Assembly: GCA_002256025.1 (NCBI GenBank)
Contig: NKIB01014413.1
Coordinates: forward strand, 1 to 43,687
Reading direction: 5' to 3'
From: Asterionella formosa
Taxonomy: Eukaryota
Length of the DNA: 43,687 nt
The notes beneath the pieces are model-generated. The model did not search any database, had not been told where the DNA came from, and worked only from the letters and a program-made list of their open reading frames with translations. Positions 4,718 through 43,560 of the stretch are shown here, piece by piece (the stretch's first letter is position 1; every line of letters starts with the position of its first letter). A program made the translations under genes and the position numbers.

Positions 4718-5034
4718 TCGTCGTCAGTCAAGCCTTTCGCGGTGACGGAATACTGCTATATCGATCTCGCTTCCTCTCTTTGCACAAAGAAAGGTGCGAG
4801 AAAGGCAAACGACTACCCGGTAGGCGGATATGTAAGGATTGTTTGTTAGTTTTAGCCTCCAACAGAAATACCGGAAATATGAAATGATGGTAACTGATAG
4901 TGTGGGCAGCATTACATATATATACCTGATGATACAGAACTACAAATGTGACCATGTTTATAATCGGTACTGTATATAAATAAAAATATAATGCATTCAC
5001 ATGGTGCGTATGGTCGGTATAGCTACAAGTAAAC

Positions 5035-5520
5035 TACCGGGTACTCAGTTAATCTACATCCCGTTCGAATACCGGTATATATCTCATGATCTGCACATAA
5101 CGGTACCCGGTACCAGGTATAGTACCAGGGTGCAAGGTACCTGTTCTCCTGTACCTGGGAGTACCAGTCCCAGTACTGGCACCTGGTACCAGGTACACAC
5201 ACCTGTGATACCGGTAGTTGATGGCAAACAGTCTACCGTTGAGAATGTATACATATATTCATGTACAAATAGCAAACATCAAGCCCCACTTCCTCGTCAT
5301 CGGGAATGTCCATGAACAATTTATTTAGCATGATTGAAAAGAAGCAAAATCAGATACTTCAACTCTACTTTACATGTAGCATATCATACCTAACGTAGAA
5401 TCGTAGAAGATTGCTGAGGACCCCTCGTCCCCAGCCTACTGGTACCAGGGTACCTGTTATGTATAATGTGTCATGCGTGTAGACTACCTGGTACTATATG
5501 TACTAGTGTAGTATAGCTAT
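5035..5520. repeat. Cluster of GTAC/TACC(A/T)GGTA palindromic micro-repeats in a divergent intergenic region
   Basis: Examples: CGGTACCCGGTACCAGGTATAGTACCAGG (5101), ACCTGGTACCAGGTAC (5181), TACTGGTACCAGGGTACCTG (5437). Confidence 0.85.
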
Positions 5521-7003: not shown

Positions 7004-7305
7004 TAGGTACCTGGTACCAGGTACCATACCTGGTAACTGGTAGAGTACCAGGTACCAGTACAATCTCAGTAGACCATCATTATATTCCTATATTACATGA
7101 TAACATATTTTCTCACTATGAAATATGAATACCTGCAATACATAATATTCCCTTGCTAGTAGATACTGATACCAGGGTACCAGATACTACGATCGTAAAG
7201 CTCGATTCCTTGCTCCTTGCTACGACATGGTACCTGGTAACCTGGTACGGAGTACCCCGTTCGATATTAATTACCGGTAGTCGTGCGTAGCAGAAGGTAC
7301 CTGGC
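7004..7305. repeat. Cluster of TACC(A/T)GGTA palindromic micro-repeats upstream of the PPR gene
   Basis: TAGGTACCTGGTACCAGGTACCATACCTGGTAACTGGTAGAGTACCAGGTACCAGTAC at 7004-7061, with further units at 7170-7305. Confidence 0.85.
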
Positions 7306-12423: not shown

Positions 12424-13111
12424 ATATGTTGTATTTATTGTCCATACATGAGATTAGAAAGAAAGATTTGAACAAGTGATGTCATCCTTGTTGACGAAGA
12501 TGATGAGTGCTGGTATATTCATTGACAAGGAGACAGCTAGTACAAAAGCACGGTCTGTATATAAAATATATATATACATGTATAAAAATATACCACTACC
12601 GGTAACTTGATGGAGTCTACGTCATTTCTTGAAAAGCCTCAGCATGTTCCTACTTCATACCGGTATACTACCAGTATAATCATACCGGCATCTTTACCGG
12701 TATTATTCTTGAATATCATAAATCATTCCGGTACTGGCAGCTTCTTGTTGTACCTCTCCGCCCGTTGCTTCAGTGGAAGGGAGATCATCTAATAGCAGCT
12801 GTCAGCTATTGAGTCGCTCGCTCATCAGTCGGATGTTGTGTTGAGAAACCACCATCATTCCATTGAGTTGATCATTTCCTTTCTTTCCCTCTGAGAGCTG
12901 TCATTCCAAACGAAGCGGCGCATTTGTTCAACGATCAGATCAGATTCGAGTCGTTGGAGCCGCGGTCACTCGTGGCTACAGTAGCGGTCGTAAATTAGTC
13001 GTGCTCCGACTTCGGGCGCGGTCGTGACTCCGGCAGCACTGCTTCCCGGTGCTTGTAGAACAGATCCCGCCTCGCAAAATCTGGACAAAATAACCCGAGC
13101 ACTCCACAGCC

Positions 13112-17445: not shown

Positions 17446-17978
17446 TGTTGCTGGTGGTTGGATCGTCGGATTTGGTGGACTGAGAGTGGAAAAAGTTAGA
17501 CTTGATTGTGACGACGGTGAAGGCGCCCGATGCACAAATAGTGAACAGTCCAGAGTTTGGTTTCGAGGCGACGTGCGTTTCTCGATGGTGTCGACGTTGT
17601 TTGTTGGCAGCAAGAAAGTAGACAAAACAAAAAACTAATTAAATTTATATAGCCATAATAATTTTTGTGACTGCCGGAGCGGTAGGTACCTGGTAATAGA
17701 AATCCAAGTCTACATGAGTCCTGATTGAAGGTGAAGAAAACACGTCATCACGTAAAAGAGGAATCTAATTAAAAGGAATCTTAGAGGGTCAATCTCAACA
17801 GTGATACAAATTATTTTTTGTTGTATCTTCAGAAAAAAATGAATCTTTACAGAGATTCATTTTACAAATATATCTCTGTAATGGTGCAAACATGTGCATC
17901 AGACTCAGCAAAAATAGTTGCAATGTGTGCTTCAATTATTCAACGTGGCTGACCATTGTTATCAATAGTGTAACAACA

Positions 17979-19485
17979 ATGACAAATAGACCAGAAGAAC
18001 CAGACAGTTGGGATTTAATTGACAATCTTGATATAGAAGCGGAACAACAGAGCGTTTTGTTAATTGCAGCAGTTGCATTATCATTTTTGGAGTCCTATGA
18101 ATGAAACTCAAAGCCAGTGCGAATTCCAAAATGGGTGCATCAATGAATTGACTGGAATGAGCATGTCACAAAGCTTCTTCATGAGAATAGATTTCATCGT
18201 GAATATCGCATGTCTCTTGAAGCTTTCAATCAACTACTGGAACTCCTTCGACCTTCCATCACAGTTAGTGCTGTTAAATCAAAAATGCAAGTTCTGGTTT
18301 ATACCGCTCAAATCAGCATGATGTTTATCCTGAGTTGATCCTTGCCATCAGACTTCGCTGGCTTGCAGGCGGAAACCTCATAGACATTCATCATGTCTAT
18401 GGATTTTCTTATCCATCTGTTTATGCCATCACTAAAACATTCCTTGATGCAGTGAACTCCTGCACAGCATTATCAATAAAATTCCCTACAACAAACAAGG
18501 AGAAACAAACAGTGATGAATGAATTCCTTGAAAAAAGCGAGCAGCAACTATTTCGTAGGTGCATTGGTGCTATAGATGGATATTTACAGCCTATTTCTAA
18601 ACCAAGAAAAAAAGGATTGTGATGGCTTCTCTCAAGCATATTGGTCTGGGCATTATATGTCTTATGGATTAAATGTTCAAGCTGTTTGCGACAGCAATTG
18701 TTGTTTCCTATACTTTGGTGTCATGACAGCACCATGAAAATGTACAGATCAGAAGGCATTCGAAAGAACAAAATTTTTTCAGATTGTATCCAACCTTCGT
18801 CCTGGACAATACATAGTAGGTGATGCTACTTACACATTGACTTATCAAGCGCTCTGTCCATTTGTTGGAAGTCAAAGGGAATCAACAAATAAAGATGCAT
18901 AAAACTATTTCCTTTCACAACTCCGCATTAGAATTGAGATGACTTTTGGATTGCTCACCAATAAATGGAGGATAAAACTCAACCTTCTTCCAGGAAAATA
19001 CATAGTAGATGATGCTGCTTACACATTGACTAATCAAGTGCTCTGTCCATTTGTTGGAAGTCAAAGGGAATCAACAAACAAAGATGCATACAGCTATTTC
19101 CTTTCACAACTCGCTCCGCATTAGAATTGAGATGACGTTTGGATTGCTCACCAATAAATGGAGGATCCTGAGGACATCCTTGTCCTTCAGGATGAAGGAA
19201 TCACTTGAAATTATTTCTGCTTGTGCCCGCTTACACAATTTTTGCCTACTCATGGATGATGATAAAAAGAAAGAACTTTCTAATGGTTTTGAATTTCTGA
19301 ATACTTTAGAGCTTGTTGATCCAATGCCCAATGCTCCTCTTGGGTGGGCTTATCTTCCAACTGTCAGGAAGTTGGATTTAGTACAAGATAATTCACAGAT
19401 TCGGCAAATTTTTTCTTGATGTTGTCACCAACAATGGGTTTAGGCGACCTCCGGCTAATGTGTTGCACCAACGGCGTGAACTGAT
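17979..19485 (+). pseudogene. Harbinger DDE transposase (DDE_Tnp_4/HARBI1-like), frameshifted; last codons displaced to 31161-31181
   Basis: YRMSLEAFNQLL, LRWLAGG, CIGAIDG (first Asp), GLNVQAVCD, GDATY/DDAAY (second Asp), RIRIEMTFGLL (Glu) and LHNFC. Several stops and frameshifts. Confidence 0.92.
18791..19166 (+). repeat. ~185-bp tandem duplication inside the Harbinger transposase
   Basis: 18791-18973 closely matches 18980-19166 (CAACCTT...GGATTGCTCACCAATAAATGGAGGAT). Confidence 0.95.
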
Positions 19486-19600
19486 CGTCTGCAAATAAAA
19501 AGTATCATGCATATAGGATCAAGGGTATTGTACGCTAAGTGGCACAGGATTTTCGTATACATGATAATTTTTGGATCAAAACTATGATCAAGGTATCCTA

Positions 19601-19716
19601 TAACTATGATGATTTATTAATATTTTACCGACCTTGAAGTGTAATGATAATAAGAACATAACTATGATGATTTATTAATATTTTACCGACCTTGAAGTGT
19701 AATGATAATAAGAACA
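19601..19716. repeat. Perfect 58-bp tandem duplication in the subterminal region
   Basis: TAACTATGATGATTTATTAATATTTTACCGACCTTGAAGTGTAATGATAATAAGAACA occurs twice in tandem. Confidence 0.97.
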
Positions 19717-21552
19717 TTATCATCACACAATGTATAACAACTGATCAACAACATTTCTCATGAATATCATAAACCTTCTCATTCTATTTTCAATTCTCAT
19801 GATCGCCCAATGTAAATTATTACTACAACGCATCCTAAAATCAGCTCAACTCTATGCTATCATGTGAATTGTTTCATCGTAAATCTATCTTAAACATGAT
19901 CATAATTCTAATCACAGGCATTGTTTAAAATAGATTGGAACGGATCGAAATTTAAAAATGATATTTCTGTGTTGACAGCTACCTGAGGAATGTTTCTCTC
20001 CTCTTCCACTCGTCTCAATGTATATTATTCCTGTCTCGCCCTCTTTTCCTCTTTTCTGAATCTTGTGCCAAGCAATGCCTTACTAATATTGCGTCTCTCT
20101 CCCTGCTATTAGTGTCATTCTGAACTCGCCGACTATTCCGTTGTTTGATCGGTTTTATTGTCCTATGATGCAGTTACAGTAACAATGAGAAGGAATGACT
20201 TGTTAGCTAGACATGTTACACTGACACAACATCACGCCATTCCATCGTATCCTCTTGCTTGCTTCACTTACCACAAATCAAAGCAAATGAGGAGGCATAA
20301 GTCTGTAATAGTAAATTGTCAGTAAATTCTTGAATAAGTAAGTTTCAGGTTGCTTTCCAATGTTGCCAAATAAAACTTACCGATTCATTTTCGTTAGCTT
20401 AACTTTGAGAGAAGGTAATGGTGCGTGTCTGTCAGTTATGTTCCATCAGAAGTGAATACTAGGTCCAACGACAAGAGCACTTACCGATTTTGTTTGTTTT
20501 ACATTGGTGCTCCCCAACAAGCAAAACGAGCTGTTGATTCAACTGAGAAAAAAGTAAATGTGCATTTAGTTTACAATTTGTTGTTTTCCTGCCTCCCAAC
20601 GATTATCATCCAAGTACCACGCACATTGATGGCTTCATTACCTTAAACATACTCCATCCTTCGAAGGCGCAATGTGTCGAAGGCACAATGTTTTTCGTCA
20701 TTGCGTAAACTTTTCCTTATTTGTCATGTGCTTTACTCCGATGTTTCTTTTCATGAAGCAGGCATTGTTTGTTAACATGACAGAACGATTTCAAATATAT
20801 TTGCCATGTATATAGTTTTAAATTTGTAAATATATAAATATATCAAGTGTCGTACATTTATAAATATCAAAGGCACTCTCAATATGGAACGTCTGGTAGC
20901 CATTGTTGAGATGATCATATTCGCATATAGATAATTCGAAAATATTCAATGCACAATATGTCCATTGTTTTTCAAGACTTCGTGTACCGATACTGTTTTT
21001 TGAAATTTGTTTGCATCAATATTTTCTACGTCCATTGGAACTAATTATTTACCGGCAGATCATTAAATGGTGTAAGTCATAACCCATTTGTATCATTATT
21101 TATATGCAAGGATTTTGGTAGCAAATTGTTTAAGCCACTTTTTTGGGCGGGAGTTCTTCATGTGTACTGGTACATCATATGACAATAACATTTTATCATA
21201 TATATACCACAGAGTACCAGTAGCAGGTAGGAAGTGATATACTGGGGGTACCAGGTAGTCAGAGTACCAGGTAGTAAGCAAGCAACAGAACATCATATGT
21301 TCTGGACTGTTGCTACTACAGTGGGACAGTAAATCATCATAGTTTCAGGATCATATAATTGTATAATTAAAAACAAGATCTGCTATTACTCAAACTTGGT
21401 TCTGATTTTGTATATGATAATGTAAATAGCACTGTTGGTCGTAAAATAATATATGTAGTGGCTGATGATTCATTTCATTGTAGCTAGCAACACCTGATTT
21501 TAAGATCATCGAACTTTAAGGAAGACAACGACAACAGTTATCTAGCAGTACA

Positions 21553-22800
21553 ATGTCTTCAAAAAAACCATAAAGATGTTCACCGAAACAAGCGACATGT
21601 GGCAGATACTGCCGGTATGGAACAAAGAAGCAAGTACCAAAATGAGTTAACAGAGAAAAAGTGAATAGGCGATTGTCCAAAGGAACCCAATCAGCGACAG
21701 GGAGTTAGTGGTGGTGCTACCCCATCGTCGATGGAGACACCATCAGCTACTACTACAAAGGTTTTGTCGTGATTTGATTCAAAACTCGTCTATATGAGGT
21801 TATCAAGAATCTTCAATTTCAGCAGCCTTATCAGAACATCGTTCCCGCTTGGCTAAAATTGAACCATCAATTGTCACAAAGGTTGTGAGTTTTATTTTCA
21901 AGACCAAGAAGTTTTGCTGCGGCTATACACAGTGAAACCAGATTTATGCAAAAAATTGGAGAGTGACCCAGAGCTTGCCGACTTCAAATGGAATGGTTCT
22001 GATGCACTACTTCCGATGAATCAGACCATTGAACATACCAACAAGGCATGTTTAGATTACATCAAATTAACAATTGGTGGCATGCGCATTAAATTGAATA
22101 ATTAATTTAAAGGAATCTTAGGTAAGTTCTTGCAGGGAGATGCTCTGAAAGCATGATGTTTTGAGTCGGTGATTATTTTCTTATCAAATATGTTTCAATT
22201 CAAAAATGCTAACATAATTCATGACACACCAGCTGGTCTAACAGAATATAGCTAACTTCCAGACTATGGATATTGATGACTTTAATAGGTGGGCGTTCAC
22301 GCTTTATCGTTTTGCGCAGTCAAAGGACATTGACATGGGAAGCCAAGGATACCAAGTCTGGCGTGATGTTCTTGCTCCAGTGTATTTTATAGGCAGGACA
22401 AGCCATGGAGAACCATTTTTAACAGGAGACAAATCTGGTGTGACCAAGCCAAATTTCAACTGAGTCCTCGGGCACAGTGTGAATTGCAATCACGTTTTGT
22501 TGGTTCGCTGATCAATGCCAGTACAGAAGCCTTTTGCTTCTTGGTGCTGAAAGGAAAATTCCGATTGCAAAAAAAATATTTGGGTTTCAATCCAGATACG
22601 CAGGAAATTTCAGAGAACGATATTCGTCATTCTACTAATTATGTCGACATTGGTGGGAAACCACTTATCAAAAAAAGTGTGAGGGAAGAAAAGTTCAGTT
22701 TCAAATGGTCTCACTGATCATTGGACTGATGATTTACTCGTTTATTATACGGAAATCTACACTGGACTTTCACAAAAGAATCGATCTGATTATAGAAGGA
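21553..22800 (+). pseudogene. Decayed accessory gene of the Plavaka-like element
   Basis: Collinear plus-strand ORF fragments (21914-22105, 22266-22463, 22484-22717) follow an ATG at 21553. The STEAFCFLVLK segment recalls the SDEAFxLLxLEN-like motif I associate with accessory ORFs of such elements. Confidence 0.5.
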
Positions 22801-23311
22801 ATCCTAGTGGAATTGCTACTTCCACAATAAAAATCATCTACCCACACTCATACTTATCATTTCCCAACGTAAGTGAAGAGGATATGCATCAATATGTTGA
22901 ACCACTTCAACCAAATGTTCCTGAGAAGAATATTGATTACAATGACCGCAGAAGTTAATCGACGGGACATTGATGACGATGTTGATTTTGAATGGATCTA
23001 ATAGAATCCAATGCATACTTAGTAGTTACATAATAATTATAGTTACTAGTGTGAGACTTCAAGAATGCAAGCCATATCATAGATGATAGAAAAACATTGA
23101 TTCTTCTCTATACTACTATTACTATTAGTGCCGCCTGTACTACATTTAGCGGTATACCTCCATTTTTACTACTATGGTGGAGTGATAATTTCAAAACTCT
23201 GTATTTTCCAGCACAGCATGTTCGAAGTGGCGCTCAATTTATTATAGTATATTAATTCATTTTCATTCTATCCTTTTCATATCCTGACTTGTTCATCATT
23301 TGCAATTTGCA

Positions 23312-24457
23312 ATGTCTTTGCGCACATTGCAATGGTGTTTTCTGTGTAACTACAAATTTCGGAAGAACAAACCCCCATCTGAGTCTCACAACCGAAATTG
23401 TAGCAACCGTGTTTTCTATGCATATGGTCACTGTCGACATTGCATGCAAGAACATCAAGTTCCTGTAATACATAATGAAACTATGTATTGCGGTAGTGCA
23501 TCGAATCATTCAATGAAAAAATTTAATGATGGCAGTGTAACTGCTACAGCATTTAGGGAGAGTAGACAACAAGAAGAGATTATGTGTCCTTTCCTTCAAT
23601 CAAGTGGCCACAATCATCCATTTCATGACGACAGCGATGATTCAGTTTATAACAATATTTAGTCACAACAAGACGAACAATTGAGACTAAAAACTGTCCA
23701 AGGGTTGAATTCAGAAACCATGCAATATTCAGATTTCCAAGATCACACCGGCTTTCTCCCTGAAAATGCAATGGAAATGCCCCTTCCCATTCCTCCACAA
23801 TTTCAACTTCCAAGTAAACATTCTCTAAAAATGCGCGCATCCAATCGAATTAGAACTCATGTTATTCCTTAACAAGAAATACCTTGCTTCCTCCCCTTCA
23901 CTTTGATCATCTAATGAAATGGCTGTTCAAGGCAAAAGCAATGAAATATTTTGATTGAAGGTATCAAGCTCCATTCTACCAGACTTTGAAGAAACGCATG
24001 GATATTTCATTTCCACCAACATTAGCTGGTGGTCAACTGTTGACCAAACAAATAAAGATGGATAAAAATTCAAACATGATCATCCCACGCACACTCCATT
24101 ATTTCGAACCAGTACAGCTCATGGCAGAATTGTTACATGATTCCGATGATATCATGCAACATTTTGTATGTCACCCACAAGTGAAACTTACAACTTGTGG
24201 AGAACGCATATATGACGAAGTAACTTCTGCGACTTGATTTGAAAATGCATTCAACAATTCTCCTGCATCAGAAAATGGAGTGTTGAAGCCAAGACAGGGT
24301 TTTTATTTGTTGCCGTAGCAGTTTTCAGTGATGGGATGGTTCACCTATTGATAAACAAATGAAACATTCCGAGCATCCGTTTTTGTTGACAATGTTAAAC
24401 TTAACGTTAGAAGGAAGGAAAAAAAGTTGATGGATGCATGGCAATTGGTATCTCTTT
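23312..24457 (+). pseudogene. 5' part of a Plavaka-type transposase with a Cys/His-rich N-terminus, truncated at 24457
   Basis: YFEPVQLMAELLHD...HFVCHPQ...GERIYDEVTSAT*FE, AVFSDG (first catalytic Asp) and KHSEHPFLLTMLNL..EGRKK follow the Plavaka motif order (ERVYxEMxTGDWW...ILxSDxT...PVYLTIGN). Upstream CxxC..H..C..CxxC segment at 23312-23662. Confidence 0.7.
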
Positions 24458-25098
24458 CGTCTGCAAATAAAAACTATCATATTTCCATGATGCATATTCT
24501 GATCATAATATTTCGTTATATCATCTAATAATTTTGATAAATGCCTTTGTAATTTAAATAGTATCCCTTTAACTACATATATTTAATTATTATATGTATT
24601 GTTTCTATTTGATTCCTGTATTCGAATTTCTTGGTAGGAAAATGTACCAGTTCAAGTAATGTAATTTGGCTCGTCATTTCCATCCGTCATCACTTCGATT
24701 TTTGAAACAACAACAAAATACTACTAGCGATGACAAGTGGAATGAATGTTTGCGATAACTTCTTCAATTTGTTAGTCAAGTGATCATTATGTCTTTGAGT
24801 ATTCGTCATGTGCAGTGAACCTTTGTTCATAGTCATTCAATTAAGAGTTTACAGGAGAGAAGAAATCATTCGAACTTGTAATGGTTCCGCACGCAGCGCA
24901 CAAAGTATATCCGTTTCGTCGACTTCAGCATGACAATTTCGTCAATCAACCCGCCAAAAACAATCACATTCTACTTGTTCTTGTTGACATTTTCAATTCT
25001 CACATGATACTACATCTACTATTGAGATTCAGCATAGAAGGAGATACGAAAATGTAACAGACTACTGTCCACATAGCTATAGTTATAGAATAATTCTG
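24458..25098 (-). repeat. Inverted ~640-bp copy of the Plavaka-like right end (partner 30519-31160)
   Basis: Begins CGTCTGCAAATAAAAACTATCATATTTCCATGATGCAT and aligns in reverse complement along its whole length. For example, 25023-25078 is the reverse complement of 30544-30599. Confidence 0.95.
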
Positions 25099-26322
25099 AT
25101 TAAGAATTTCATTTTCATATCGCTCGCTCGTTTCTGCTTTCATAATGTCCTTGAATTACCTATTGAACTTGTCCGCATCTTTGATACCATCAAGAGAGCG
25201 AAAGCAAGTGGCTCTTTTCATTGTTGTTTGCTTGTAGGAAAAATTTGATATCTGTATCATCATTAGCTTATTGGAACTGTCCGTTGCCTCAAACCTGCTT
25301 GGCGTGTGCATACACACACTGTCAACTTGTTTTCATTGGTATGATATGTAATATTGAATAAAGCAAATCACATAGCTATGATACATTGATCATAAAACTA
25401 TGATGATTTTATAAAATATTTATGATATAATTTTGATCGAAAAATGAATATGTTAAAATAGTACAATGACAATAACATACGATAAAATATGTACACAAGT
25501 GTTACCAAGACATCATAGAAAATAAATCAAGCAATCATAAAGTATGTTAATTAATATATATGTTTGTCATTTAATGTATACAGTTAAAGACAACAGTTAA
25601 TATGATAGTATTATACAGTGGATAGGATCTAAGTATATGGATGCGTTGATATGTACATCACTATAATATGATTTGTGACATGGATTGATGCATACCACAT
25701 ACCGGTATCCTCAACAACCAGCCATCACGTTCATTGTCATGTCGTCTTTCGTTGTTTTAGCTATATATATGCTGGCATGTGTATTGTGTAAACACTACGC
25801 TGGCGGAACATGCATATTACAGTGTGCTCTGTTCAACAATTACTACACTCGGTTACCATCACACCAGTCCAACCTCCACAAGCGCCGCAATAAGCTCCAC
25901 GAAAAGCTCTGCGTTTCCCTTCCACTGTTTTACATCATTGTCTTCTGGCCCTTTGACAACTTTCCAAATGGCATTTCACTGATTTCATGGAAAGGATCAG
26001 TCAAACAAGAAACGAGACTTATTTCCGTTGTTTACACTACACAACTTTATGTTTTTGGAAAAGAAGATGAAGAAACTTATGAAATCAATCAAAGATTCCT
26101 TTGAATAAACTCAACGGTCAAATGAATTTGAACAGATTCATAATACTCCAGAAAAAATAATGAAGTATGCTGATACAATAGTGGCTGAGATTGAAAAGAA
26201 GGAAAGATTGCTTTGAAAGAGCCAAGGAAACCCAAACAGTTGTTCTTCGGGGATGAAGACTTTATTCCTACAGAGTCACAGTTCCATCCAGTGTCGTATT
26301 TTGCTTGGTCTCCTGACATCCC

Positions 26323-29300
26323 TTATTTGTGTAATCAAATCTTGTCCTTTGGCTGAGAAAAGTCTTCCTTCATTCATGTCTATGAAAAGTGCTTGATGAT
26401 CTGAGTATTTAAGTCCATTGTTATAATCCATGATTCCACCCCTTACTACTGCCTGGGAAATAGCCAACAACCCAAGGATGAAGTTGATCTTTTTCTTTCT
26501 GCGCCCATACGATTCTGGAGGTGGGGTCAAACTAGTGAGATTTGAATGAAGGTCAAGCAACTTATGTTTGGTAACCATTTGAAGGAACTGAACATCATCA
26601 AAATTGGAGTTGGCATCAAGCATCAAAATAATTTCATCACCCTCCTCTTGAAATTGTTGTATCTTGGCTGATAGGTCTTGCCAGAATTGCACCCTTGGGT
26701 TGACCGGATCCACCTGCTGTGTATTTAGAAATCTTCACTGTTGCATAAATGCAGTGTCCATTTGCACACTCTGGGTGGATTTCTGACTCACTTGATATGC
26801 TGTAATTATTGGGAGGTGCTTCTGGTCTTGGCATTTGAAGCATTGACATGCCCATCGACCCATGTCCTTGTCATTTCCTTGTTGCGTCAAGCAGGACCCC
26901 ATTTTATTTGTAGACATCATGCTGCACCCTCCTTGTTGCAGGATTTTGTAAAATCCCTCATTACAGGAAGAATGAGAGAAGTAAAGGGTCTTATGTCCTG
27001 TGGTCATTTTTCTTTCCCATGAATCACAAAAGGAAACATTGTTCCAATTGATGTTTGTCTCACATGTCCTTGGATTTGAATACCATTTTTCTGAATCTCT
27101 GCGTGTACCATGCTTGATTGAGTAAGTCCATTGACGTTTTGGAATATTAATCTCACTATATCATCACTAACTGGTTTGATATCATCACCCCAGTGCCCAA
27201 ATCTGTCAGCATTTATCATTTCATTATGTTGTTTGTGTTGACTTGGTGTGTGGCTGGTGTCTCTGTGTCATTTGGAAGTGTTGTGAATCCAATTCTCATG
27301 TTGTGACATCTCTCTTGGGGGTAGGTGTAAATTTCTGATCCCAGGTTGTAGTGAACCTGGATTGTCTGGGAAGTCCTGAGAGACTCTCATGATGCCTGCC
27401 CATGCTGGCTTGCTTTGCCAGTTTGGGGAGATGTGTGGTGGAAGGGAGTGATGACAGTGGGTTGAGGAGTTCTATCTATCAAAGAACCATTTGGAGGGGA
27501 ATGTAAAGTATAGGGTGGTTGCAGTACAGAGAATTTAGGATGTAATTTCCATAACATATCCATCATCAATAATAGATTTCCCTTGATTTCCTCTGTGTCC
27601 TGTTGCATGTTATGCACTGTATCTTGAAGCAATTCTTGTGCCACCTGGTGGTAAGAATGCATGTTGTGTTGCATTTGTAAGAGTTCACTGCACAGAGAGG
27701 ACATTTCCGTTTGAACCACACTGTGAGCACGCCATGTGGGCTCCGAAGGTGTGATTTCGGACAAGTCTTCTGGGGGTCTCATTGCCAAGGCTGATGTTGC
27801 GACCCAATCTCTGGCAACCTGAGTGTATGTGGTACGTGAAGTTGTATAGGTGATATAGTGTTGATGAAGTTTATTAGCGCGCAGTCGACTTTTGTGAGTG
27901 CTGACACTATCACTGCTACTCCTGCTACTGCTGCTGAGGTCACTGTCTGTGGTGTCCCCTGTTTGTGCGAGCCGAGCCTTCTTGGATTGCATTTGTTTCT
28001 TGGTAGAGCGTGGATGTGTGCTGTTTAACAAGGGTAAGTCTTGGTGGTGAATGTTTCCCCTCATGAATTCCACGCCATTGGTGGACTTATAAGATGCTGT
28101 AGCACTTCCACTGCGAGATTGGTTATTAGATGCAATTGACAAGGTAGGAAATTTGTTGTCTAAATCTGCAAAAATCTCATCCAGTCTGGCTTCTCCGTCA
28201 TTACTGTTGTCCTGTGCATTTGCCATCCTTTTGAACAAGTCGTTGTCCTTCAAATCAGGGAATGTCTCCTGTGCCACCTTTAACAGATGGTATCTTATCT
28301 TGTACATTTGATCCTTTTTTCTTGTGGTACTAGACAGAATGGCTGGTCATATATTGTTTGGTACCATGTGGCACCACTGCATCAAACATGTTGTTGCCTG
28401 TATCATCTAGTATGTTTCTCAGGATATCTCCCACTGTGATATTAAATTCATTGTTATGGATTGTATCTTTGTAGGTAATCATCTCTTCCAATCCTTGCAG
28501 ATTTCGAGGCATCACTGTAAGCAGGTTCTTATCAAAAGATGATTGTCGCCTGATGAATTTATCATTAGACTCTGCTGTACTTTTGAGCATAGATAAGGGT
28601 ATGAATCTCAAGAGCGGCCTTGTCCAATCCTTGTTTGCTGTATCCGGACCATAAAGTTTGGTCAGCACCTCACAGGCCTCAGTATAGTCCTCTTTTTTAG
28701 TGCAAATCGTTGTAGCGGAAACTGATGGCGACTTTTCCGATGATCCATGTATTTTTGACCAACTTAGCTGGAGAGGAAGTTCCTTATTCTTGGTATGAAT
28801 GCTCATTTTGTTACTAATATGTTTTGCTAACTCAACTCGATTTTCCGCTGCCATTGTACCATACAACACTCCCACCATGACCACCGGTGATGTCCCAAAG
28901 TTCGCAAGGGATAAAGATAAGATGGTGTGGTGTTTTGTTAAAACCTCTTTTTTGGTCATTCCCAAGAATATCCATGGGTTGAGGGGTGCTCAAGTGAATT
29001 AATCCATGGAAATAATCCTTAGTCAGTGAACCTTTATGCACATACCGTCTGATTACTCTGGTTTCAATTGAGTCCGGTATATTTCCCTGCTTTCTTGTGA
29101 TGGGTTCGAGTAGTTTGTTTGTTTCTGGTGCAATGATTTGGGCCTCTGGTGCAGCTTTGAGGATAGACTTGAAAATTGCCTGGATAATTGCCATGATGGA
29201 TTCGTCATTTGCTGTGTTATCTGGGCGATTTATTTTTATAGCCATATATTTATTAGTCAGTATCCCCATGGATGGATACTTCGTCGTTGCGGGTGTGATG

Positions 29301-30518
29301 GTGGTAGCAATATGTTGATTGGGAGCTATGTTGGTCATGGGGTCATCCTGTACCTTTCGAGTTAAATCATTTGAGTGAGAACCTTGGCTATCCTTGGTGC
29401 TGTTTGTTAGTGCCTAAATCAATTGCTATTTGTCTCTGTTGGAGGGAATGCCATGTTTGTTGTCTTGGGAGTGCCCGGGGGACTCTGCATATCATTCATC
29501 TCGACATCTGAGTTGTTATTCTGCAGTGGGCTTGCTGGCATTGGTGCGAATCTAGGGTCAATTCGTCCGTCTGGTGACAACATTGGGCGTTTTGTACCCA
29601 TTGCCGGTTTCCTCTGAGATCGATGGGGGATGGTTGTTGTGAGAAGGGATAGTTTCGAGATGTTCTGCATGCTTTTCCTTGTTGTTATGATGGATCCGGG
29701 GAAGTGACATGTTCGTTGCCGATGCGTTGTGGGGGGTTCTTGGTGGTTGAATGCGATTTTGTGAGAACGTCTTCGACCGCCTTTGAGGGGAGACTGTCTG
29801 CCAGTTGGCCTCATGATCAGACAAGAAATGACCGCCAATCAAGTCGTTGTGGTCATTTAAGTATGTGTCGCCATTAGTCTGCCTTTGGTCTCTATCCATT
29901 TGTAGGCCTGCACCTAATGTGTCCAGAACTTTGGGGTGTCGGTTGGCGGTCTTTGTACCGTTCAAGGGAGTATCATGCATGGTGGTTGCAGTTGTCACAT
30001 TTGTTTTATTGGGCTGATCCCGCCGATGCAAGGCGATAAATGCACTGTGTGGGCTCTTTAGATTCGCATGAGTTGCGATCGTGATATTGCCATTGGCGCT
30101 TGTGGCCATTTCCATATATTCATCAGCCGAAGTGTTCATGTTGTTCCAATCGTCGTTGTTTTTGCCTATTGTAGTAAGTTTGTTGCCAAAGTTGTCGTTT
30201 GGCTCTGGTGTTGTTGGCACATCATTATTGAGTTCGAAGGGGGGTTCCGCTGTGAGAAGAGAGTAGTATTCGACTGCAAAATCTGTAATCTTAGCGTTGT
30301 TTTTCTTCATTTTTCGTTGTAGTGGGGAATCATCGGTCCCTGCATCCGATGCATGCGAAGTTTGAACAGCAGAGGCCTCCGTATCGTGCGAAGAAGAGGT
30401 ATCCGCCATGGTGGGGTGGAGGCACCATTCGACCAGAACGCTACGTAGGTACTCCTGTAGACTTGTAGTACACTTTTGTATGTAGTAGTTTAGTATGCTA
30501 TTCACTTTTCCACGTGTG
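26323..30518 (-). mobile_element. Ambal-like non-LTR retrotransposon (LINE): 5' UTR, broken ORF1 and APE endonuclease; reverse transcriptase and 3' end missing
   Basis: ORF1 fragments run from ATG 30409 to 27387. ORF2 from 27219 has WGDD..P...RLIFQNVNGL, QQGG..MM, GRW...IITAYQV, PRVQFWQDL...EIILMLDAN, KINFILG and SDHQALFID (APE motifs). Similarity stops at ~26323. Confidence 0.85.
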
Positions 30519-31250
30519 CGGAACTATTCTGTAACTATACTTTAGCTATGTGGACAGTAGTCTGTTACATTTTCGTATCTCCTTCTATGCTGAATCTCAG
30601 TACCAGGTACCTGGTAGGAGATGTAGTATCATGTGAGAATTGAAAATGTCAATGAGAACAAGTAGAATGTGTTTGTTTACGGGTTGATTGGCGAGATTGT
30701 AATGCTGGTGGTGGTTGACGAAACGGATTTACTATGTGAGCTGTGTGCGGAACCATTATGATTTCGAATGATTTCTTCTCTGTAAACTCTTAATTGAAGA
30801 ATGATTGTGAACAAAGTTTCACTGCACATGACGATTACTCAAAGACATAATGATCACTTGACCAACAATTGAAGACGTTATCGCAAACAATCATTCCACT
30901 TGTCATCGCTAGTATTTCGTTGTTGTTGCAAAAATCAGAGTGATGACGGATGGAAATGACAAGCCAAATTACATTACTTCAGCTGGTACATTATCCTACC
31001 AAGAAATTCGAAGAAAGGAATCTGATAGCAACAAGAAGGGTTACTTTTCAAATTACAAGGGCATTTATCAAAATTACTAGATGATATAACGAAAAATTAT
31101 GATCAGATGATCACAATCCTATGATGCATCATGGAAATATGATAGTTTTTTTTGCAGATGATTGAAATAAGATTAATGTAGCATACAAACTATAACTGAA
31201 AGGAATTAGCTAGGTAATAACAAGAACTAAGTAGAAATATAACTGTTAAC

Positions 31251-32513
31251 CTAATTATGATTAGATGCATGATCCTCTTCAGCTGTTCGTATGAGAGATA
31301 CAGAATTCATGGTCAGTGCTTTGGCTTCAAAAAATTCAACAAAACTGACATTCTCTTGATACTCTTTACCATCACATTTTTGTGAAACTTCATTGCTTGC
31401 TACTTCAGTCCGAGCTTCCTTTAACTTTTCGCGGTACATACTTACAACATCCATTAGTTCCTTCTCTTTTTTTACAAGAAAAGTCGCTCAAGAAAATTAT
31501 GCATTGGAACTTTGAGAGGCAAGTGTCATTTGTGTACGGCGCTCATTTGCTTTTGAAAGTTCTATAAGCGTGTCGACCACTTGTTTGGATATGTTCTTAA
31601 ACTCATTGCTGCCATACTTTCTACCTTTTCTTCGTTGAACAGGTAGCTTGGCAACATCTTCCTCTGCATGAACGTGAATTAGACTGTCCATGCCTAGCAT
31701 CACCACCACTTAAACTTGGTACTGCATAGGCACGGAAATGTGGCACCTGTTGATGCCATAAATGATAGTACAAACAATAAGGCCGATTTTGGGTGAAATT
31801 GTCAAAGTTATCGTGTCGGCCAGAAACTTTGTTATTATTAGCTATCCAAAATATCAAAAGTGCTGAGGAGATAGTTATCATCAATTCTGTGGTATTCAAA
31901 CTGGGTGTGTTTGAATGCCATGGATCCAACTGTATCATCGTCTATGTCCATGTAGGTATCCAATAACTTGTCCCAAACTGCTTCATGGGGAAATTTTCTT
32001 GCATCCAGCCAACTCACACATAGTTGGTGTATTCCTAAGACACAAAACATCTTGCCGATGTTTCTCATCGAAGAAGACATTAATTACTCGATAGTATATG
32101 CCATGCTTCTTAATATATTTAGGAGCAGTTGCAGCATTTCTTATCCTATAATTCTTGGGAGGTCGTCCCTGTTTCTTAATAATCTGGTGAGATCTTTCAG
32201 AATCGTCATCCAATAAAATATCAGCAGGAACTGGAGATGTAAATGCAGACAAGTGGGAAGGAGATAGTTCGGAATCTGTACTTAGCTAAGTCATTGGCAA
32301 TATCTTCTCTGGTAGTAGAAAGTTGCTTTGATAGTATTAGGCGAGGAGACTTCCTTGCTGATGATTCAGGAGTGTAAAGGGAGAGCCTTTTCTTTTCAGA
32401 TTCTTCTTTAGGCGAGGAGACAACCTTGTTGATGATTCAGGAGTAAAGGGAGCGCTGTTTCTTTTCAGATACTTCTTTGGTTCTTTTGACGACTTTTTGT
32501 TGTACCCCGTCAT
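31251..32513 (-). pseudogene. Harbinger accessory (second, putative DNA-binding/Myb-SANT-like) gene, frameshifted
   Basis: Collinear fragments YYRVINVFFDE..., LDARKFPHEAVWDKLLDTY and SGRHDNFDNF...YCLYYHLW..VPHF, with a coiled C-terminus. Convergent with the transposase inside the same TIRs. 71-bp tandem duplication at 32337-32476. Confidence 0.65.
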
Positions 32514-33393: not shown

Positions 33394-33992
33394 CAGCACC
33401 TATACAATGATATCAAGAAAATGTCAAATGCATCAAATGCTCAGCAACTATACAGTGATATCAACAGAGTGCATCTAATGCATCAAACACTCAGCCACTA
33501 TACAGTGATGTGGAGATCGAGAATGCATCAAATGCTCAGCAACTATGCTGTGATATCAAGATTGAGAATAAATTGATTGCTTGGAAAGAATCAAATGCTC
33601 AGCAACTGTAAAGTGATGCAGTGAACAAGAATGCATCAACCACATCAAATGCTCCGCAACTATCCAGTGATATTGTGAACAAGAATGCATCAACCACATC
33701 AAATGTTCTGCAACTATACAGTGAAATTGTGAACAAGAATGCATAGAAAGCATCAAATGCTCAGTAACTATACAGTTATATCGAGATCAAGAATGCTTTG
33801 AATGCTCAGCAACTATACAGTGATATCGTGAATTGCAATAATCCACCAAACACATTGAACACTTGTCAAGAAATATACAGTGATATCAAGAACTCATCAA
33901 ATGCTTTACATGGTCAGCAAATATTCAGTGATGTCAGGAATGCATCGAAGGCTCAGCAACAGCTCCTTTACAGTGATATTAAGAATTCATCA
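33394..33992 (+). repeat. Degenerate array of ~12 units with core GCATCAAATGCTCAGCAACTATACAGTGATATC, encoding ASNAQQLYSDI-like peptides
   Basis: Unit spacing is about 45-63 nt and almost always a multiple of 3. A single frame reads ..NASNAQQLYSDI.. with three internal stops and one frameshift. Confidence 0.85.
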
Positions 33993-34712: not shown

Positions 34713-37355
34713 TCAACTTGACAAAATACTTTGAGAGCCCCTGAGTCTCCCTGCTTCATTTCGAATTTCTGCACATCTGCTGGGATAACACTTCAACAAA
34801 TATCGAAAGTGACACAATGAATAGCCACTTGCACTTCGGTCACAGGCCTTCGGAATCACCAGGGGTAACCCATCAGTCTGACCATATGAATCACCATATG
34901 CATACAGATCTACAATTGCAACCCCATCAACACACATAGAAATATACTCATTTGGCATTCTGCAATTGCGGGTCTGTTGACAAATCAAATTGTTGCCTAA
35001 AGCCATGAAGTCTGTAGCCAACCACTCACTTTTACAATCTTGTGTCACAGAGAAACTGATCCTATCACCATCTTGAGAAATGATCTTGATTAGATTGTCA
35101 GTAGCTATATTCATACAATTGTCAACATGAATCTTGTGCACATCAATAGATTTTGACTGAATCTCACAATTAACTTCCTTGACCCTTGAAACGGAAATAT
35201 CATCTGTGCTAATCCCAAGCAGATGGCGGGAGCCAATAAGATTTCTAACTTTCTGAGTTAATGGCCAAGGTGTTGGTTGTGGAGATGGCCATGGTGAGAA
35301 TCCAAGAGTGATGGTAGGGACGGGAGATGAAATTGAAGTTGGATTTGGAGAAGGAATTTGTATTGGTATCGCTCTTGGTAAAAGAGTCGGTTGATAAGAA
35401 GGCTGATGAGTTGGTTGTTGGCTGGGAAATGCTGTCGTTATGGATGGTGAAGCATTGAAGAAGGTTGGCGTGGTTAATGATTGAAGAGATGGCCTCGGCG
35501 TTGGTGATGTTGTTGGTCGACTGGTGGGGCTGAGTGAGGGCTGTGTAGTTGGCCAAGGGGTTGGCTCAGGGGTTGGTAGTTGAGTCGGTGACGTGGTTGG
35601 TGAAAGTGTTGGCTTTGGGGTTGGTTCTGGAGTCGGCGTGAGAGTTGGTGGAAATGTTGGCCTTGGGGATGGTGGTAGAGTTGGTTTAACAGATGGTTGA
35701 GGAGTCGGCCTAGGTGTAGGTGATGCAGTTGGTTCGGGAGTAGGTTGAAGTGTAGGCTTAGATGATGGTCCAGGGGTTGGTGGTGGAGTTGGAGCAACAG
35801 TTGGTGAAAGCGTTGGCTCTGGGGTTGGTACTGGAGTCGGTTTCGGAGATGGATGAAAAGTAGGCTTTGGGGATGGTGGTAGGGTAGGTGCACTAGTCGG
35901 TGCAGAAGTTGGTTCTGGTGTTGGTTTTGGAGTTGGTTGAAGAGTTGGGAGCATTGTCGGTATCACTGTAGGTAAAAGAGTTGGTAGAGGAGATGGCGGA
36001 GGGGTGGGGTCTTGGCTCGGAAAAGCAGTTGTAAGGACTGGTGGAGCAACATATATGGTTGGAGAAGACGTAGGTTCTGGTGTCGGGGTCACTGTGGGGA
36101 CAAAAGTTGGTAATGGCGTTGGTACTGGAGTTGGTTGAAATGATGGAGGCACTGTTGGTGCATTTGTTGGTAATGGAGTTGGCTCTTTAGTAGGCTCTAC
36201 AGTTGGTAGCAATGTTGGCCGAGGGGTTGGTTCTGGAGTTGGGTTTGCCGACGGTTGAGGAGTCGGCCACGGCGTTGGTGATATTGTTGGTCCACGGGTG
36301 GGGCTGAGTGAGGGCTGTGTAGTTGGCCAAGGGGTTGGCTCAGGGGTTGGTAGTTGAGTCGGTGAAGTGGTTGGTGAAAGTGTTGGCTTTGGGGTTGGTT
36401 CTGGAGTCGGCGTGAGAGTTGGTGGAAATGTTGGCCTTGGGGATGGTGGTAGAGTTGGTTTAACAGATGGTTGAGGAGTCGGCCTAGGTGTAGGTGATGC
36501 AGTTGGTTCGGGAGTAGGTTGAAGTGTAGGCTTAGATGATGGTCCAGGGGTTGGTGGTGGAGTTGGAGCAACAGTTGGTGACAGCGTTGGCTCTGGGGTT
36601 GGTACTGGAGTCGGTTTCGGAGATGGATGAAAAGTAGGCTCTGGGGATGGTGGTAGGGTAGGTGCACTAGTCGGTGCAGAAGTTGGTTCTGGTGTTGGTT
36701 TTGGAGTTGGTTGAAGAGTTGGGAGCATTGTCGGTATCACTGTAGGTAAAAGAGTTGGTAGAGGAGATGGCGGAGGGGTGGGGTCTTGGCTCGGAAAAGC
36801 AGTTGTAAGGACTGGTGGAGCAACATATATGGTTGGAGAAGACGTAGGTTCTGGTGTCGGGGTCACTGTGGGGACAAAAGTTGGTAATGGCGTTGGTACT
36901 GGAGTTGGCTGAAATGATGGAGGCACTGTTGGTGCATTTGTTGGTAATGGAGTTGGCTCTTTAGTAGGCTCTACAGTTGGTTGAAGGGATGGTGATACTG
37001 TTGGTTCAGTTGTTGTTGCGAGAGTTGGCTCTGGGGTGGGCATTACAGTTGGTTGCAATGTCGGCCAAGGGGTTGGCCATGGAGTTGGCCATGGAGCTGG
37101 ATGTCCTGGCGTTAGGGGCACTTCAGAAACAGAAGTTGTTAATGGCGTTGGTACTGGAGTTGGTTGAAGGGATGGTGGTTGTGTTAGTGATGGAGTTGGC
37201 TTTGAGGCACATAGCTGACAAGAAGAATCCATGGACTTGCCTCCCAGTGTCTCAGCTGCCAATGAATCTTCTAACAAACACATACAAATAAACAATAGAA
37301 AAGAAACCAAAAAATCCACATTGTTTATACTCATAACAGTATGTTTGATTCTCAT
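34713..37355 (-). CDS. Secreted Pro/Thr/Ser-rich (PT-repeat, mucin-like) protein with a C-terminal Cys-rich domain
   Basis: 880-codon ORF (the true start may be M8). Hydrophobic signal peptide ...[19 protein letters not shown]. About 650 aa of PT/PSxxP tetrapeptides, then RHLL, then a Cys-rich domain ([11 protein letters not shown]...[10 protein letters not shown]...CHFRYLLKC). Confidence 0.9.
35491..36980. repeat. Near-identical intragenic duplication with period 774 nt (258 aa)
   Basis: 35491-36206 matches 36265-36980 with few substitutions. Confidence 0.95.
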
Positions 37356-37931
37356 ATTTCAATTCGCTTAGCTTGTAGATGTCCTCGTGATCGTATCGTT
37401 TTTGTGAATAACTGGGAACCCTGATCAATGATAGAGGCACAATGTACAACTTTGTTTCCCTCTTTCTGTTGTTGTCGTCACATCCGATGCATATTTGCAA
37501 ATTTTTGATGTTTTTAACTGAAGTCGATATTAGAAGTCTGCCGGTAGATGCGTTGGGTTTTTTCCAATTGTTCAAAACGTGAAAGACATAACGACCGAAG
37601 AATATATTTCACAGAAATTATGTCAGTTTTCAACCGTTATAGCGGTAAGTCCCTCACCCATCGTTCATACAGCACTTCCGATGCATAAGTAATTTTGATT
37701 GCGATGTTTTTAGCATTGCGGAATGCAAGCGTGTAATACTTAAGCCTGCATGCGTTGGATAATCATTCATTCAGTGACTTTATTTAAAACGTACACATTA
37801 ATTGTGAAACGTGTGTTCCAATTCACGTTCACATTCTGACAAGCGAGCGATTCGTAGTTAGTACATAATTATGTACCGGTAGACTAGATTGAGCATGACT
37901 TTGTACCAACTACGTACTATATACTGAGGGA

Positions 37932-39700
37932 TTACCTGGAAGGGGACGTGCATGGGGACCACCAACTAGGAGGACTTGGAGAGCTAACTCCAAAGTCGCC
38001 TATCCAAACATCCGTTTCTAGTGTCCTTTTGTACAAGGGAAGAATCATAGGAAAGTCTTGCTTGATCAACTGATACGATTCTTCGTCACTAAATTGTAAC
38101 CTCTTTATTATGTCATTTCGACCAACACGTGGTCTAAACCAGGACCCGTAATTAGGTTGCAATCAATATCTGATCCGGAATAGCAGAATCGCTCCTGTTA
38201 TAGCTGTTTTTCTTTTATTCAGTAGAGCGGTTCACAGCCATTTTCTCTTTGATTCTGTTCCATATTTCTTGTGGCAGACCTGACTAATATTTGCTCGACT
38301 GTTGAACTACCCTGGGGTAGGTTAACAATTCCTGGGATGTTGCTCTTGGCTTGTCTGATGTAAATGGAGCATTTAAAAACGATACTCAAGTTTGGCTGAA
38401 AAGATTGCCTTTGAATGTCAACCAATACCAATACCGGTAGTTGTCATGGTGCCCGATTTGTTCAGAGGTAACCCCTGCCTGGGAAGGAACATCCACATGG
38501 AAAATTGAAAAAGGTTAAATAAAAACCTATCAACAATGGAGATCCCAACATGATGAGCTCAGCTTGATTGTTGACATTCGGGCCGCCCCGCCGCAGCATT
38601 GTGCATGACTGGGATAGAACTGTCGGTACACCAGCCGTCGATCCAAGCGTTTGCGTGGCACGGTACCTGGTACCATTGTCTACTGAGTTTGCCAATCTCA
38701 CTCAGTATTGACATTCTTTCCAATAATTGCATCGGCACCAATGCGGAAATTGCCATTGACAACATGCTGATCCCCTTTGATGTGATTTCAATTAAAACAA
38801 CCCCTCCTAAAAATACAATGTTTTCAAACACAAACCATTGATGTTTCCGAATAGCTAGCTAGCTAGCTTGTTCTGTTTTCAGTCATCTTGAACAGGCTGT
38901 TTCTTCAAAAAGCTACGGAGAACAGAACAAGGCTCTGCCAGCACCAAGTTCGGAGCTAGTATACCGGTAGTAGTTGATCTGATTTGATTTACATTGTCTA
39001 CTGAGTTTGCCAAGCTCACTCAGTATTGACATTCTTTCTAATAATTGCATCGGCACCAACGCGGATATTGCCATTGACACCACGCTGATCCTCTTGATGT
39101 AATTTCAAATCAAACAACATGCAAACCCTCCTAAGAATACAATGTTTTCAAACACAAACCATTGATATTTCCGAATATCTACCTTGCTTGCTTGTTCTGT
39201 TTTCAGTCATCTTGAATTCTTCAATGAATCGTTGAGATTCAAAGCAAATTTCATCAACGACGACATTTGCGGGCTCATCTTGATTGAGTTTCGGCTGTTG
39301 GCCACAGTCTTTCCATGCTGGAGGATAGAATCGGAGACATTCTTGGCGGCAACTGCATAACGGCAGTGTAATTCCTCTTGTGGCTCATAGTTTCTTTGGG
39401 TTTGCCAAATTCCTGGAATTTTTGCTTTTTCATTTAACATTATACAGAATCTTTGCTTTGGCTAGATTCCTTTGAGAAGGTCCAGCTGATGAATTTCGCA
39501 ATGGATCAGTCTCCAATAAAAGTGTGGAGATGGAGCAACAAATATTTGTCTTTTCACGTCGTCATGCGTTGCATGACCCATTGGCATAGGTATTGTTATT
39601 GGCATTGGCCAGTCTCGGTATTTTCTGTTGCAAGTAGAGGAACATCAAAACGTTTCGAACAAATCGACAAATAGGTTCATATTCCACCAAGTTTGTAGTT
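37932..39700 (-). pseudogene. Fragmented gene remnant(s), family unassigned
   Basis: Protein-like minus-strand pieces (WFRPRVGRNDIIKRLQFSDEESYQLIKQDFPMILPLY; RFYPPAWKDCGQQPKLNQDEPANVVVDEICFESQRFIEEFKM) are separated by stops and a duplication. Confidence 0.35.
38674..39216. repeat. ~220-bp direct repeat pair
   Basis: 38674-38892 resembles 38992-39216 (CATTGTCTACTGAGTTTGCCAA...TTTTCAGTCATCTTGAA). Confidence 0.95.
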
Positions 39701-40024
39701 TGTTTTTATGTTGTGAGCTAGAGCGATCTTTCCCTGATTCCTAAGCATCAAAGTGCACACCGGTATGTTTGGTAAGGCTGGCTTGATCATTCTGAGTGAT
39801 GGTTTCCGAAATGGAAGGGATTACCGGTACAAGTAGAGGCTCCGAAATAGTCTACCGGTACCGGTACCAGGTACCGTACCAGCAGTTGTTTGGGGGACAT
39901 GCTTCGGAGATGGAAAAGCAAGCGTTGGAAGCGGCCGCTGTTATTTTACAGTTACTTCCCGGGTGAGAGTATGGTACCAGTGGACTTGATACATACGACA
40001 ACTTCCTGTCTATTATTTTAATTC

Positions 40025-42824: not shown

Positions 42825-43560
42825 AGGGTCGTTCTTATCATTTTCGATTTGGTATCATTTTTTTTGAAAAAGTATGATGTAACCGAAAAAATCCATTCTC
42901 CACAAAAATAAAAATGAAATTGTATCACCAAAAAGTATCACGAAAATTCAACGGTTACGGGCTGGCTACAAACATGTGCTTTTCCTTCCTGACTACCGGT
43001 ACATCATGATACCAAACCAGTCCTCAAACCATGCAAGAAATCTACGCGAATTATGTATATGGGTTACTATAGTCAATTGTGTTTGCACATGTATTTGTTG
43101 TAGTCACGTGATGATTTTCTTTTTCTATTGCCTAGTACGTGCTGGACGAGTGATAGTAGAATGTACCTGTAGTGACAGCCAAAGCCAAAGTATTAGTATA
43201 TGTCGTAGTCACGTGATCATTTTCGTATTCTATTGCCTAGTACCTTGTCATGAATTCCCGGACCAGGTACCAGGGTACCAGGTACCTGTAATTAGATAGC
43301 GGGTATGTCTCTATGCACTTGACTCAATCTGTTCAATTCTCGACTCAGTGGTTTTCGTTCTTTGGTGTTGTGGCTGAACATTACCACACACGGCCGCTAT
43401 AATGATTGTATTGTGCTTCTTTGATGCACACCATAATAATTTTTATGTATATTATATATATGTCAATAAAAGTACTGCCCTGCAGGCGTATTTTCGGTTA
43501 TTTTATCAGTGTCAACGGAAATGATACCCGCATGAAAACGTCAGTATCACTGATACCGTT
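42825..43560. mobile_element. Non-coding insertion in the copia integrase, probably a non-autonomous Harbinger-like element with a truncated right end
   Basis: Integrase similarity stops at WTK. The insert begins (CTA)AGGGTCGTTCTTATC, resembling the AGGGTCAATCTC terminus at 17785. GTATCA/TGATAC and TAACCGAAAA/TTTTCGGTTA motifs occur in inverted orientation near the two ends. 48-bp direct repeats at 43091-43138 and 43196-43243. Confidence 0.55.

Follow-up and report, generated by a model that had tools for sequence, protein, structure and literature searches.

The window, i.e., the whole stretch of DNA analysed here (43,687 bases), is of diatom origin: it contains a gene for 3-ketoacyl-CoA synthase at 15674-17290, the named matches of which were all diatom proteins with about 70% identity, one further match reaching 92%, and the runs containing this DNA were labelled as algae, freshwater or lake metagenomes. 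Two repeat arms of one family lie further along in opposite orientation: the left arm at 24498..25083 (minus strand), within the high-copy block at 17.6-26.8 kb, and the right arm at 30539..31107 (plus strand), a high-copy repeat fragment that is located upstream of a minus-strand ORF ending at 30505 and holds the palindromic insert under study. The arms comprised seven inverted-repeat pairs with 88-97% complementarity, and their MAFFT alignment contained 833 columns with a mean column identity of 86%, the arms being aligned over about 690 columns.

Contigs from four runs (four studies) were mapped on positions 12400-32000, where the summed depth does not equal copy number. In all four runs, the bins 17632-26787 and 30058-32000 were covered hundreds of times more deeply than the single-copy flanks, and more than 100 distinct contigs could be found at single positions within these bins in X1. 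Given this very high contig depth over both arms, they are clearly fragments of an abundant repeat family. The original prediction had described two paralogous copies; the inverted, similar arms were recovered, but by depth they are both fragments of a high-copy repeat rather than a simple pair.

The high-copy block (17632-26787 and 30058-32000) contained no long ORF, and its edge near 17784 was sharp, with single-copy contigs ending at 17765-17784. A PIF/Harbinger DDE_Tnp_4 fragment was detected inside the block at 19030-19416 (Pfam, E 4e-6). The stretch between the arms (26788-30523, minus strand) was low-copy, its X1 depth exceeding the single-copy flanks by a factor of about 2-4, and the several consecutive ORFs at 27390-30523 were apparently disordered and had no Pfam match. 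Beyond the right arm, non-coding tandem repeats occupied 33401-33936 (eight copies, spacing 45-54 nt, 63-81% alike), and an 880-aa ORF at 34713-37355 (minus strand) had no Pfam match, contained diverged 48-nt-periodic repeats and carried a 300-nt duplication (95% identical, 774 nt apart). A weak copia-type gag match was located at 40546-41397 on the plus strand (Retrotran_gag_2, E 4e-4, which misses the Pfam cut-off), and a 127-nt direct repeat (99% identical) at 42500 and 43561; together they are probably the remnant of an LTR retrotransposon extending past the end of the window.

The palindrome at 30601-30616 and its empty site

Positions 30601..30616 of the right arm read TACCAGGTACCTGGTA, embedded in GAATCTCAg-...-GgAGATG. 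This is a perfect 16-nt palindrome made of two TA+CC(A/T)GG units, TA-CCAGG-TA-CCTGG-TA, with the middle TA common to both. The other arm, as its reverse complement, reads GAATCTCAaTAGtAGATG and has a bare TA at 25020..25021 (minus strand), the context of which, CTCAATAGTAGATG, was the same in 8/8 metagenome copies. MAFFT placed a single 14-column gap here, flanked to the left and to the right by a single mismatch. The change from ATAGT to GTACCAGGTACCTGGTAGG thus comprises 14 bases gained and two flank substitutions, A to G directly before the left TA and T to G two positions beyond the right TA; around the insert, the arms were otherwise identical for 57 nt on the left and 34 nt on the right in the same alignment. 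The original prediction that a palindrome replaces a single TA in one of two copies was exact, as seen from reading both arms and from the MAFFT gap, and the letters at 30601-30616 also matched its build from two units. The two flank substitutions are not explained by clean excision repair or by a simple scar model. As single-stranded DNA, the palindrome gave a hairpin of -7 kcal/mol (z -2.64), and CCWGGTACCWGG with at most one mismatch occurred 10 times in the window against 0.16 expected, a count reached by none of 100 shuffles.

A polarity search of a metagenome collection, in which two 13-nt anchors could be 1-31 nt apart, returned eight contigs, and all eight had the 6-nt gap ATAGTA of the short arm, including its flanking A and T. 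The palindrome was missing from nine of the ten aligned copies (these eight contigs and the other arm), among which the metagenome contigs appear mosaic, correspond to three to eight independent copies and may stem from related strains. Most copies had been expected to carry the palindrome if the short allele were a deletion; since none of the nine other copies did so, the long allele is derived, as an insertion in the right arm. Among the indels listed from contigs of the four runs, none fell at 30601 or 25020, which is uninformative on strains or alleles there.

Two further inserts were noticed in the arms. At 24571-24598, the left arm has a 28-nt AT-rich insert that includes a near-palindrome of 25 nt with TA at its boundaries (TACATATA...TATATGTA). 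The insert is missing from the right arm in the MAFFT alignment and apparently from other copies (X1 has 69 loose ends ahead of 24568), and it may be the scar of a different TA-targeting element. At 30538-30544, about 60 nt from the focal palindrome, a 5-nt insert exists in the right arm only (1/10 copies) and turns ...AAC-TA-TA-GC... into ...AAC-TA-TA-CTT-TA-GC..., a TA-duplicating change with a 3-nt core.

TA-bounded units across the window and in repeat copies

The units of the focal palindrome were far more frequent in the window than expected. TACCWGGTA occurred 16 times, against 0.11 expected and at most two in any of 100 shuffles, or against 0.27-0.38 expected from second-order Markov models including 300 simulations, and TACCGGTA, with a CCGG core, was found 14 times against 0.27-0.29 expected from second-order Markov models. 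The motif was thus about 50-fold enriched within the window. Related cores also exceeded the expectation of 300 second-order Markov simulations, including CCSGG (4 vs 0.12), CCAGGG (3 vs 0.05) and CCAG/CTGG (6 vs 1.43). CCA between TAs (TA-CCA-TA) showed no enrichment (4 vs 6.7 expected from 300 simulations), and neither CCATGG nor any of six control palindromic cores (GGCC, GCGC, CGCG, GATC, CTAG and AGCT) was found between TAs in the window. CCWGG and CCGG ranked top among all TA-x-TA words, and the W of CCWGG was A in nine cases and T in seven on the plus strand.

All 34 perfect TACC(N)GGTA units were located outside long ORFs, which take up 16,301 of the 43,687 bases (37%), so that units occupied 34 of the 1808 TA sites outside long ORFs (about 2%). 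They were also clustered, with 16 neighbour pairs less than 100 nt apart against 4.2 expected and five adjacent pairs with a common TA against 0.62 expected (P ~0.0005). The arrays were strings of full and partial cores punctuated by TA, as at 7008-7060. The intergenic arrays at 7008..7305 begin with the TA-separated cores CCTGG, CCAGG, CCA, CCTGG, ACTGG, GAG, CCAGG and CCAG, followed by more units, and an intergenic cluster at 5030..5493 contains units and partial units with CCGGG, CCGG, CCCGG, CCAGG, CCTGG and longer cores, also punctuated by TA. Upstream of the ORF ending at 37355, units were found between 37874 and 39873 (at 37874, 38432, 38664, 38962 and 39822), together with an array of CCGG, CCGG, CCAGG and CCG at 39853-39873. 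Another unit-bearing stretch at 42994..43289 starts with TACCGGTA at 42994 and ends with an array at 43263-43289, the TA-separated cores of which are CCAGG, CCAGGG, CCAGG and CCTG. Isolated units included three copies of TACCGGTA in a divergent intergenic region (12597..12702) and a lone TACCTGGTA at 17687..17695, preceded by TA-GG and located in single-copy DNA about 90 nt ahead of the repeat block. The flanks of isolated TACCGGTA units were unrelated to one another. Units lying in repeats included TACCGGTA at 25700..25707, two lone TA-CCAGG-TA units 16 nt apart in a copy of a high-copy repeat at 21249..21273 (starting at 21249 and 21265), both missing from other copies of the repeat, and TA-CCGG-CA at 21050..21057, a probable unit with CA as its second TA, the 6 nt CCGGCA of which are missing in other copies.

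TAGCTA (TA-GC-TA) was also frequent, with 21 occurrences against 5.3 expected (0/300 simulations as high), for example at 5020, 5514, 6543, 25074 and 30543; three of the 21 are part of a microsatellite of TAGC units at 38852-38865. These sites may form a second class of TA-bounded palindromes, also small, or simply reflect a quirk of composition.

The same change as at the focal site could be recognised, in the derived state, at five further sites in repeat copies, namely columns 883 and 1573 of the repeat alignment (eight metagenome contigs and both arms) and positions 21249, 21265 and 21050 of the window. At column 883, CACA-TA-CTCA becomes CACA-TA-CCGG-TA-CTCA, with the unit present in L003, L005, L006 and L008 and absent from L002, L004 and L007. 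At column 1573, the TA of AACAAG-TA-GAATG likewise becomes TA-CCGG-TA in L001, L005 and L006, and the unit is absent from the other seven copies. The more diverged copies lack the unit at both columns, and carriers and non-carriers are nearly identical over 300 columns apart from the unit itself, which indicates that these units are recent insertions or recent recombinants of such insertions. Among the gap runs of at least four columns between columns 840 and 2300, three of the 37 listed were these units. After 21250, five contigs each in X6 and X7 read as the window minus both CCAGGTA units (21249 and 21265), and after 21051, 103 loose ends in X1 run on without the 6 nt CCGGCA; the loose-end tails are short (median 12-13 nt), and this evidence is weaker than that of the alignment.

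At the focal site, both columns, 21249 and 21265, an ancestral TA corresponds to a derived TA-core-TA, in which TA alone is duplicated and a 3-bp reading fails. The claim that units are added de novo at TA sites was therefore borne out at five further repeat sites, at one of them with CA in place of the second TA. In micro- or minisatellites, units arise only by copying of a neighbour into head-to-tail arrays, unlike the lone units here, which arose de novo at TAs in unrelated contexts; slippage may, on top of this, enlarge existing arrays. The unit at 25700 reads TACCAGTA at the corresponding columns 294-301 of the related copy L002, a difference from TACCGGTA that fits CpG decay and thus accounts for the excess of CCAG/CTGG cores. 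A tandem duplication of AAT (3 nt, columns ~1545-1547), 27 nt from the column-1573 unit, is shared by exactly the same carriers (L001, L005 and L006), the background being identical apart from this; the two may reflect one repair event, linkage or mosaicism of the contigs.

Possible origin of the units as excision scars

The units are derived at TA sites, recurrent, enriched, confined to non-coding DNA and clustered. Excision footprints of the Tc1/mariner superfamily are textbook knowledge, and the fixed core between duplicated TAs, together with a central A/T that occurs either way, matches an excision product of this type. It is therefore fairly probable that the units are scars left on excision by a cut-and-paste element of Tc1/mariner/IS630 type that targets TA and has CC(A)...(T)GG tips. 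Such an element would insert at TA, which would become duplicated, and on excision its transposase would cleave the non-transferred strand slightly inward of each tip, by a few nucleotides, so that TA and a short piece of the tip, as a 3' overhang, would remain on each flank. From these overhangs, end joining could produce TA-CCGG-TA if two tip bases were kept per side, or TA-CC(A/T)GG-TA if three were kept per side and overlapped on a mismatched central A.A, which would be resolved either way. The central ambiguity expected of mismatched identical overhangs was observed (CCAGG 9, CCTGG 7; CCSGG 4).

In PMC2170065, Tc1/mariner elements are described as integrating at TA only, duplicating it and being cut 2-3 nt inside their 5' ends, and PMC7827188 describes 3-nt 3' overhangs on the donor flanks after SB and mariner excision, with footprints formed by end joining. 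The 5' inverted repeat of Mos1 starts with CCAGGT in Table 1 of PMC3419177, so that CC(A) tips do exist in the superfamily, a resemblance and not a sign of membership. Since the CCGG core was as common as CCWGG (14 vs 16), a 5-nt stagger is unnecessary: overhangs of 2-3 nt from CC(A) tips would suffice for both CCGG and CC(A/T)GG, whereas a 5-nt self-annealing CCAGG would give CC(A/T)GG only. The original prediction of successive scars at TA thus gains support from polarity and recurrence, but its unusually long 5-nt core can be dispensed with. Given that each scar would supply new TA targets and that scars are strongly clustered, the simplest reading of the focal palindrome is two scars with one TA in common, left by two rounds at one site. 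The strong adjacency of units further suggests that scars attract new events, that arrays extend by slippage, or both. Nevertheless, a load of about 2% of the intergenic TA sites (34/1808) is unusually high and counts against the scar reading, as do the two flank substitutions at the focal site, the lack of enrichment of the Mos1-type core in TA-CCA-TA (4 vs 6.7) and the absence of CCATGG.

Neither the 43.7-kb window nor the eight loci L001-L008 (12.4 kb) contained a TA-flanked element with inverted repeats and CC... tips, and no Tc1/mariner transposase domain was detected by Pfam in 67 (12 + 55) ORF translations of the window. As the source element was not found in the window and the eight loci, the transposon origin of the units, the tip sequence and the stagger width are what we infer. 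Several candidate sources were considered and rejected. PIF/Harbinger elements, to which the only transposase trace in the window (DDE_Tnp_4) belongs, duplicate a 3-bp TWA target; at the units, just TA is duplicated and is followed by a base that varies by site. In addition, the repeat edge near 17784 reads GAGGGTC and has no partner. The clusters near 5.1 kb and 7.0 kb do not represent inverted ends of a 1.9-kb element, as they are separated by an ordinary small gene (5713-6483) and their matches are merely unit against unit. A 14-nt inverted repeat (37873-37886 and 39848-39861) consists of a unit plus 5 nt, with a chance of about 0.1 given 14 units, and the three TA-CCGG-CAG half-sites are not element ends, as at 21050 other copies simply lack 6 nt. 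The double unit was also present in viral contigs, at 10 IMG/VR loci that are apparently unrelated, no more than expected by chance from a rough estimate of the collection size.

A TA-specific insertion process other than Tc1/mariner excision, such as another TA-duplicating class, a domesticated transposase or nuclease, or a repair pathway, seems rather unlikely. It would accommodate the lack of an element or transposase in the 43.7 kb window and the 12.4 kb of loci, the very high scar density (34/1808 TA sites), the altered flanking bases at the focal site and the AAT duplication linked to the column-1573 unit. However, absence from one window carries little weight, tip-derived overhangs would leave just such a fixed CC(W)GG, in no set orientation, between duplicated TAs, and to our knowledge no repair pathway adds a fixed sequence. 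For the focal palindrome itself, a single event, either a two-tip remnant (CCAGGT + ACCTGG = CCAGGTACCTGG, about 6 nt per tip) or slippage or unequal exchange of a 7-nt unit, is less probable still. The order CCAGG-TA-CCTGG fits a remnant of a left tip followed by a right tip, Mos1-type tips read CCAGGT, and the number of adjacent units (5 vs 0.62) is far above that of random re-insertion. Nevertheless, the order is the opposite, CCTGG-TA-CCAGG, at 7008 and 5182, and mixed at 5104 (CCCGG-TA-CCAGG) and 39853 (the cores CCGG, CCGG and CCAGG with single TAs between them), which a two-tip remnant cannot produce; simple copying by slippage would have kept the same W, and single units elsewhere are clearly independent events.

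Being palindromic, exclusively intergenic, mostly promoter-side and clustered, the units could also resemble cis-regulatory sites under selection, bound by a dimeric factor and concentrated in promoters, and not scars at all. This is very improbable considering that units arise in repeats as one-step, exact insertions of 6-7 nt at TA instead of by point changes, and that they decay in a neutral-like manner (TACCAGTA vs TACCGGTA; CCAG/CTGG cores 6 vs 1.4), although units may be co-opted after insertion. In mechanical terms, two TA repeats would readily allow a deletion between them, but nine of the ten copies are short with identical flanks; chance or an assembly artefact would have to contend with the roughly 50-fold enrichment of the motif and with the presence of the same units in contigs of independent metagenomes. 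We thus regard a deleted short allele or a spurious palindrome as scarcely credible.

It could tentatively be suggested that this freshwater diatom genome is subject to highly active, possibly ongoing scar-writing at TA sites, in which scars draw further events and generate GGTACC-rich palindromic promoter arrays, the agent perhaps being a mariner-like transposase, hyperactive or domesticated, for which few element copies, or none, are resident. Such a process would be a distinct mutational force on regulatory DNA, and it would leave a dense and datable fossil record of transposition. If the units are excision scars, and assuming that the density in this one window holds genome-wide, they would document, to the single base, tens of thousands of cut-and-paste events, serve as a clock and map for transposon activity, supply new palindromes and hairpins to promoters, and provide presence/absence markers to tell apart strains that show no other difference over hundreds of bases. 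The pattern also hints at a very efficient diatom-native TA-targeting transposon, which would be useful for insertional mutagenesis, for which tools are lacking in diatoms. No description of the CC(W)GG motif or of scar arrays in diatoms was found in the open-access papers searched, against which the CC(W)GG cores, the frequency of the scars (about one per kb in non-coding DNA) and the scar arrays in a diatom are apparently new, the footprint type itself being known.

Comparison with known systems

The mobile GC-rich clusters of yeast mitochondria are likewise short palindromic inserts in AT-rich non-coding DNA with a short flanking duplication; they are organellar, 30-50 bp long and mobile as units, whereas the diatom units are nuclear, have 4-5 bp and are too short for mobility of their own. 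The footprint of Sleeping Beauty, TA-C(A/T)G-TA, as described in PMC7827188, is closer, with TA duplicated on both sides, a tip-derived core, end joining and a central A/T ambiguity that comes from the mismatch of identical 3' overhangs. Its core is C(A/T)G, in contrast to CC(A/T)GG or CCGG in the diatom, and the diatom scars differ further in occurring about once per kb of non-coding DNA and in being stacked in arrays.

Mariners of the Mos1 type have inverted repeats of about 28 bp that start with YYAGGT, and they encode a DD34D transposase. The usual footprints of Mos1 consist of 3 nt of one end plus TA (TA-CCA-TA). This mariner of Drosophila mauritiana also targets TA, and its CCAGGT tip, as given in Table 1 of PMC3419177, has the letters of the CCAGG core, with cleavage 3 nt inside the 5' end according to PMC7827188; its 3' repeat starts with TCAGG in PMC3419177, unlike the CC(A) tips proposed here. 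The TA-CCA-TA class was not enriched in the diatom window (4 vs 6.7). Tc1/Tc3 and ISY100 have CA...TG tips, as opposed to CC...GG here, and the 5-nt CCWGG would need an extra base or a longer overhang in such a system. Their cleavage 2 nt inside the 5' ends, as described in PMC2170065, would nevertheless result in a 4-nt core, as in TA-CC+GG-TA.
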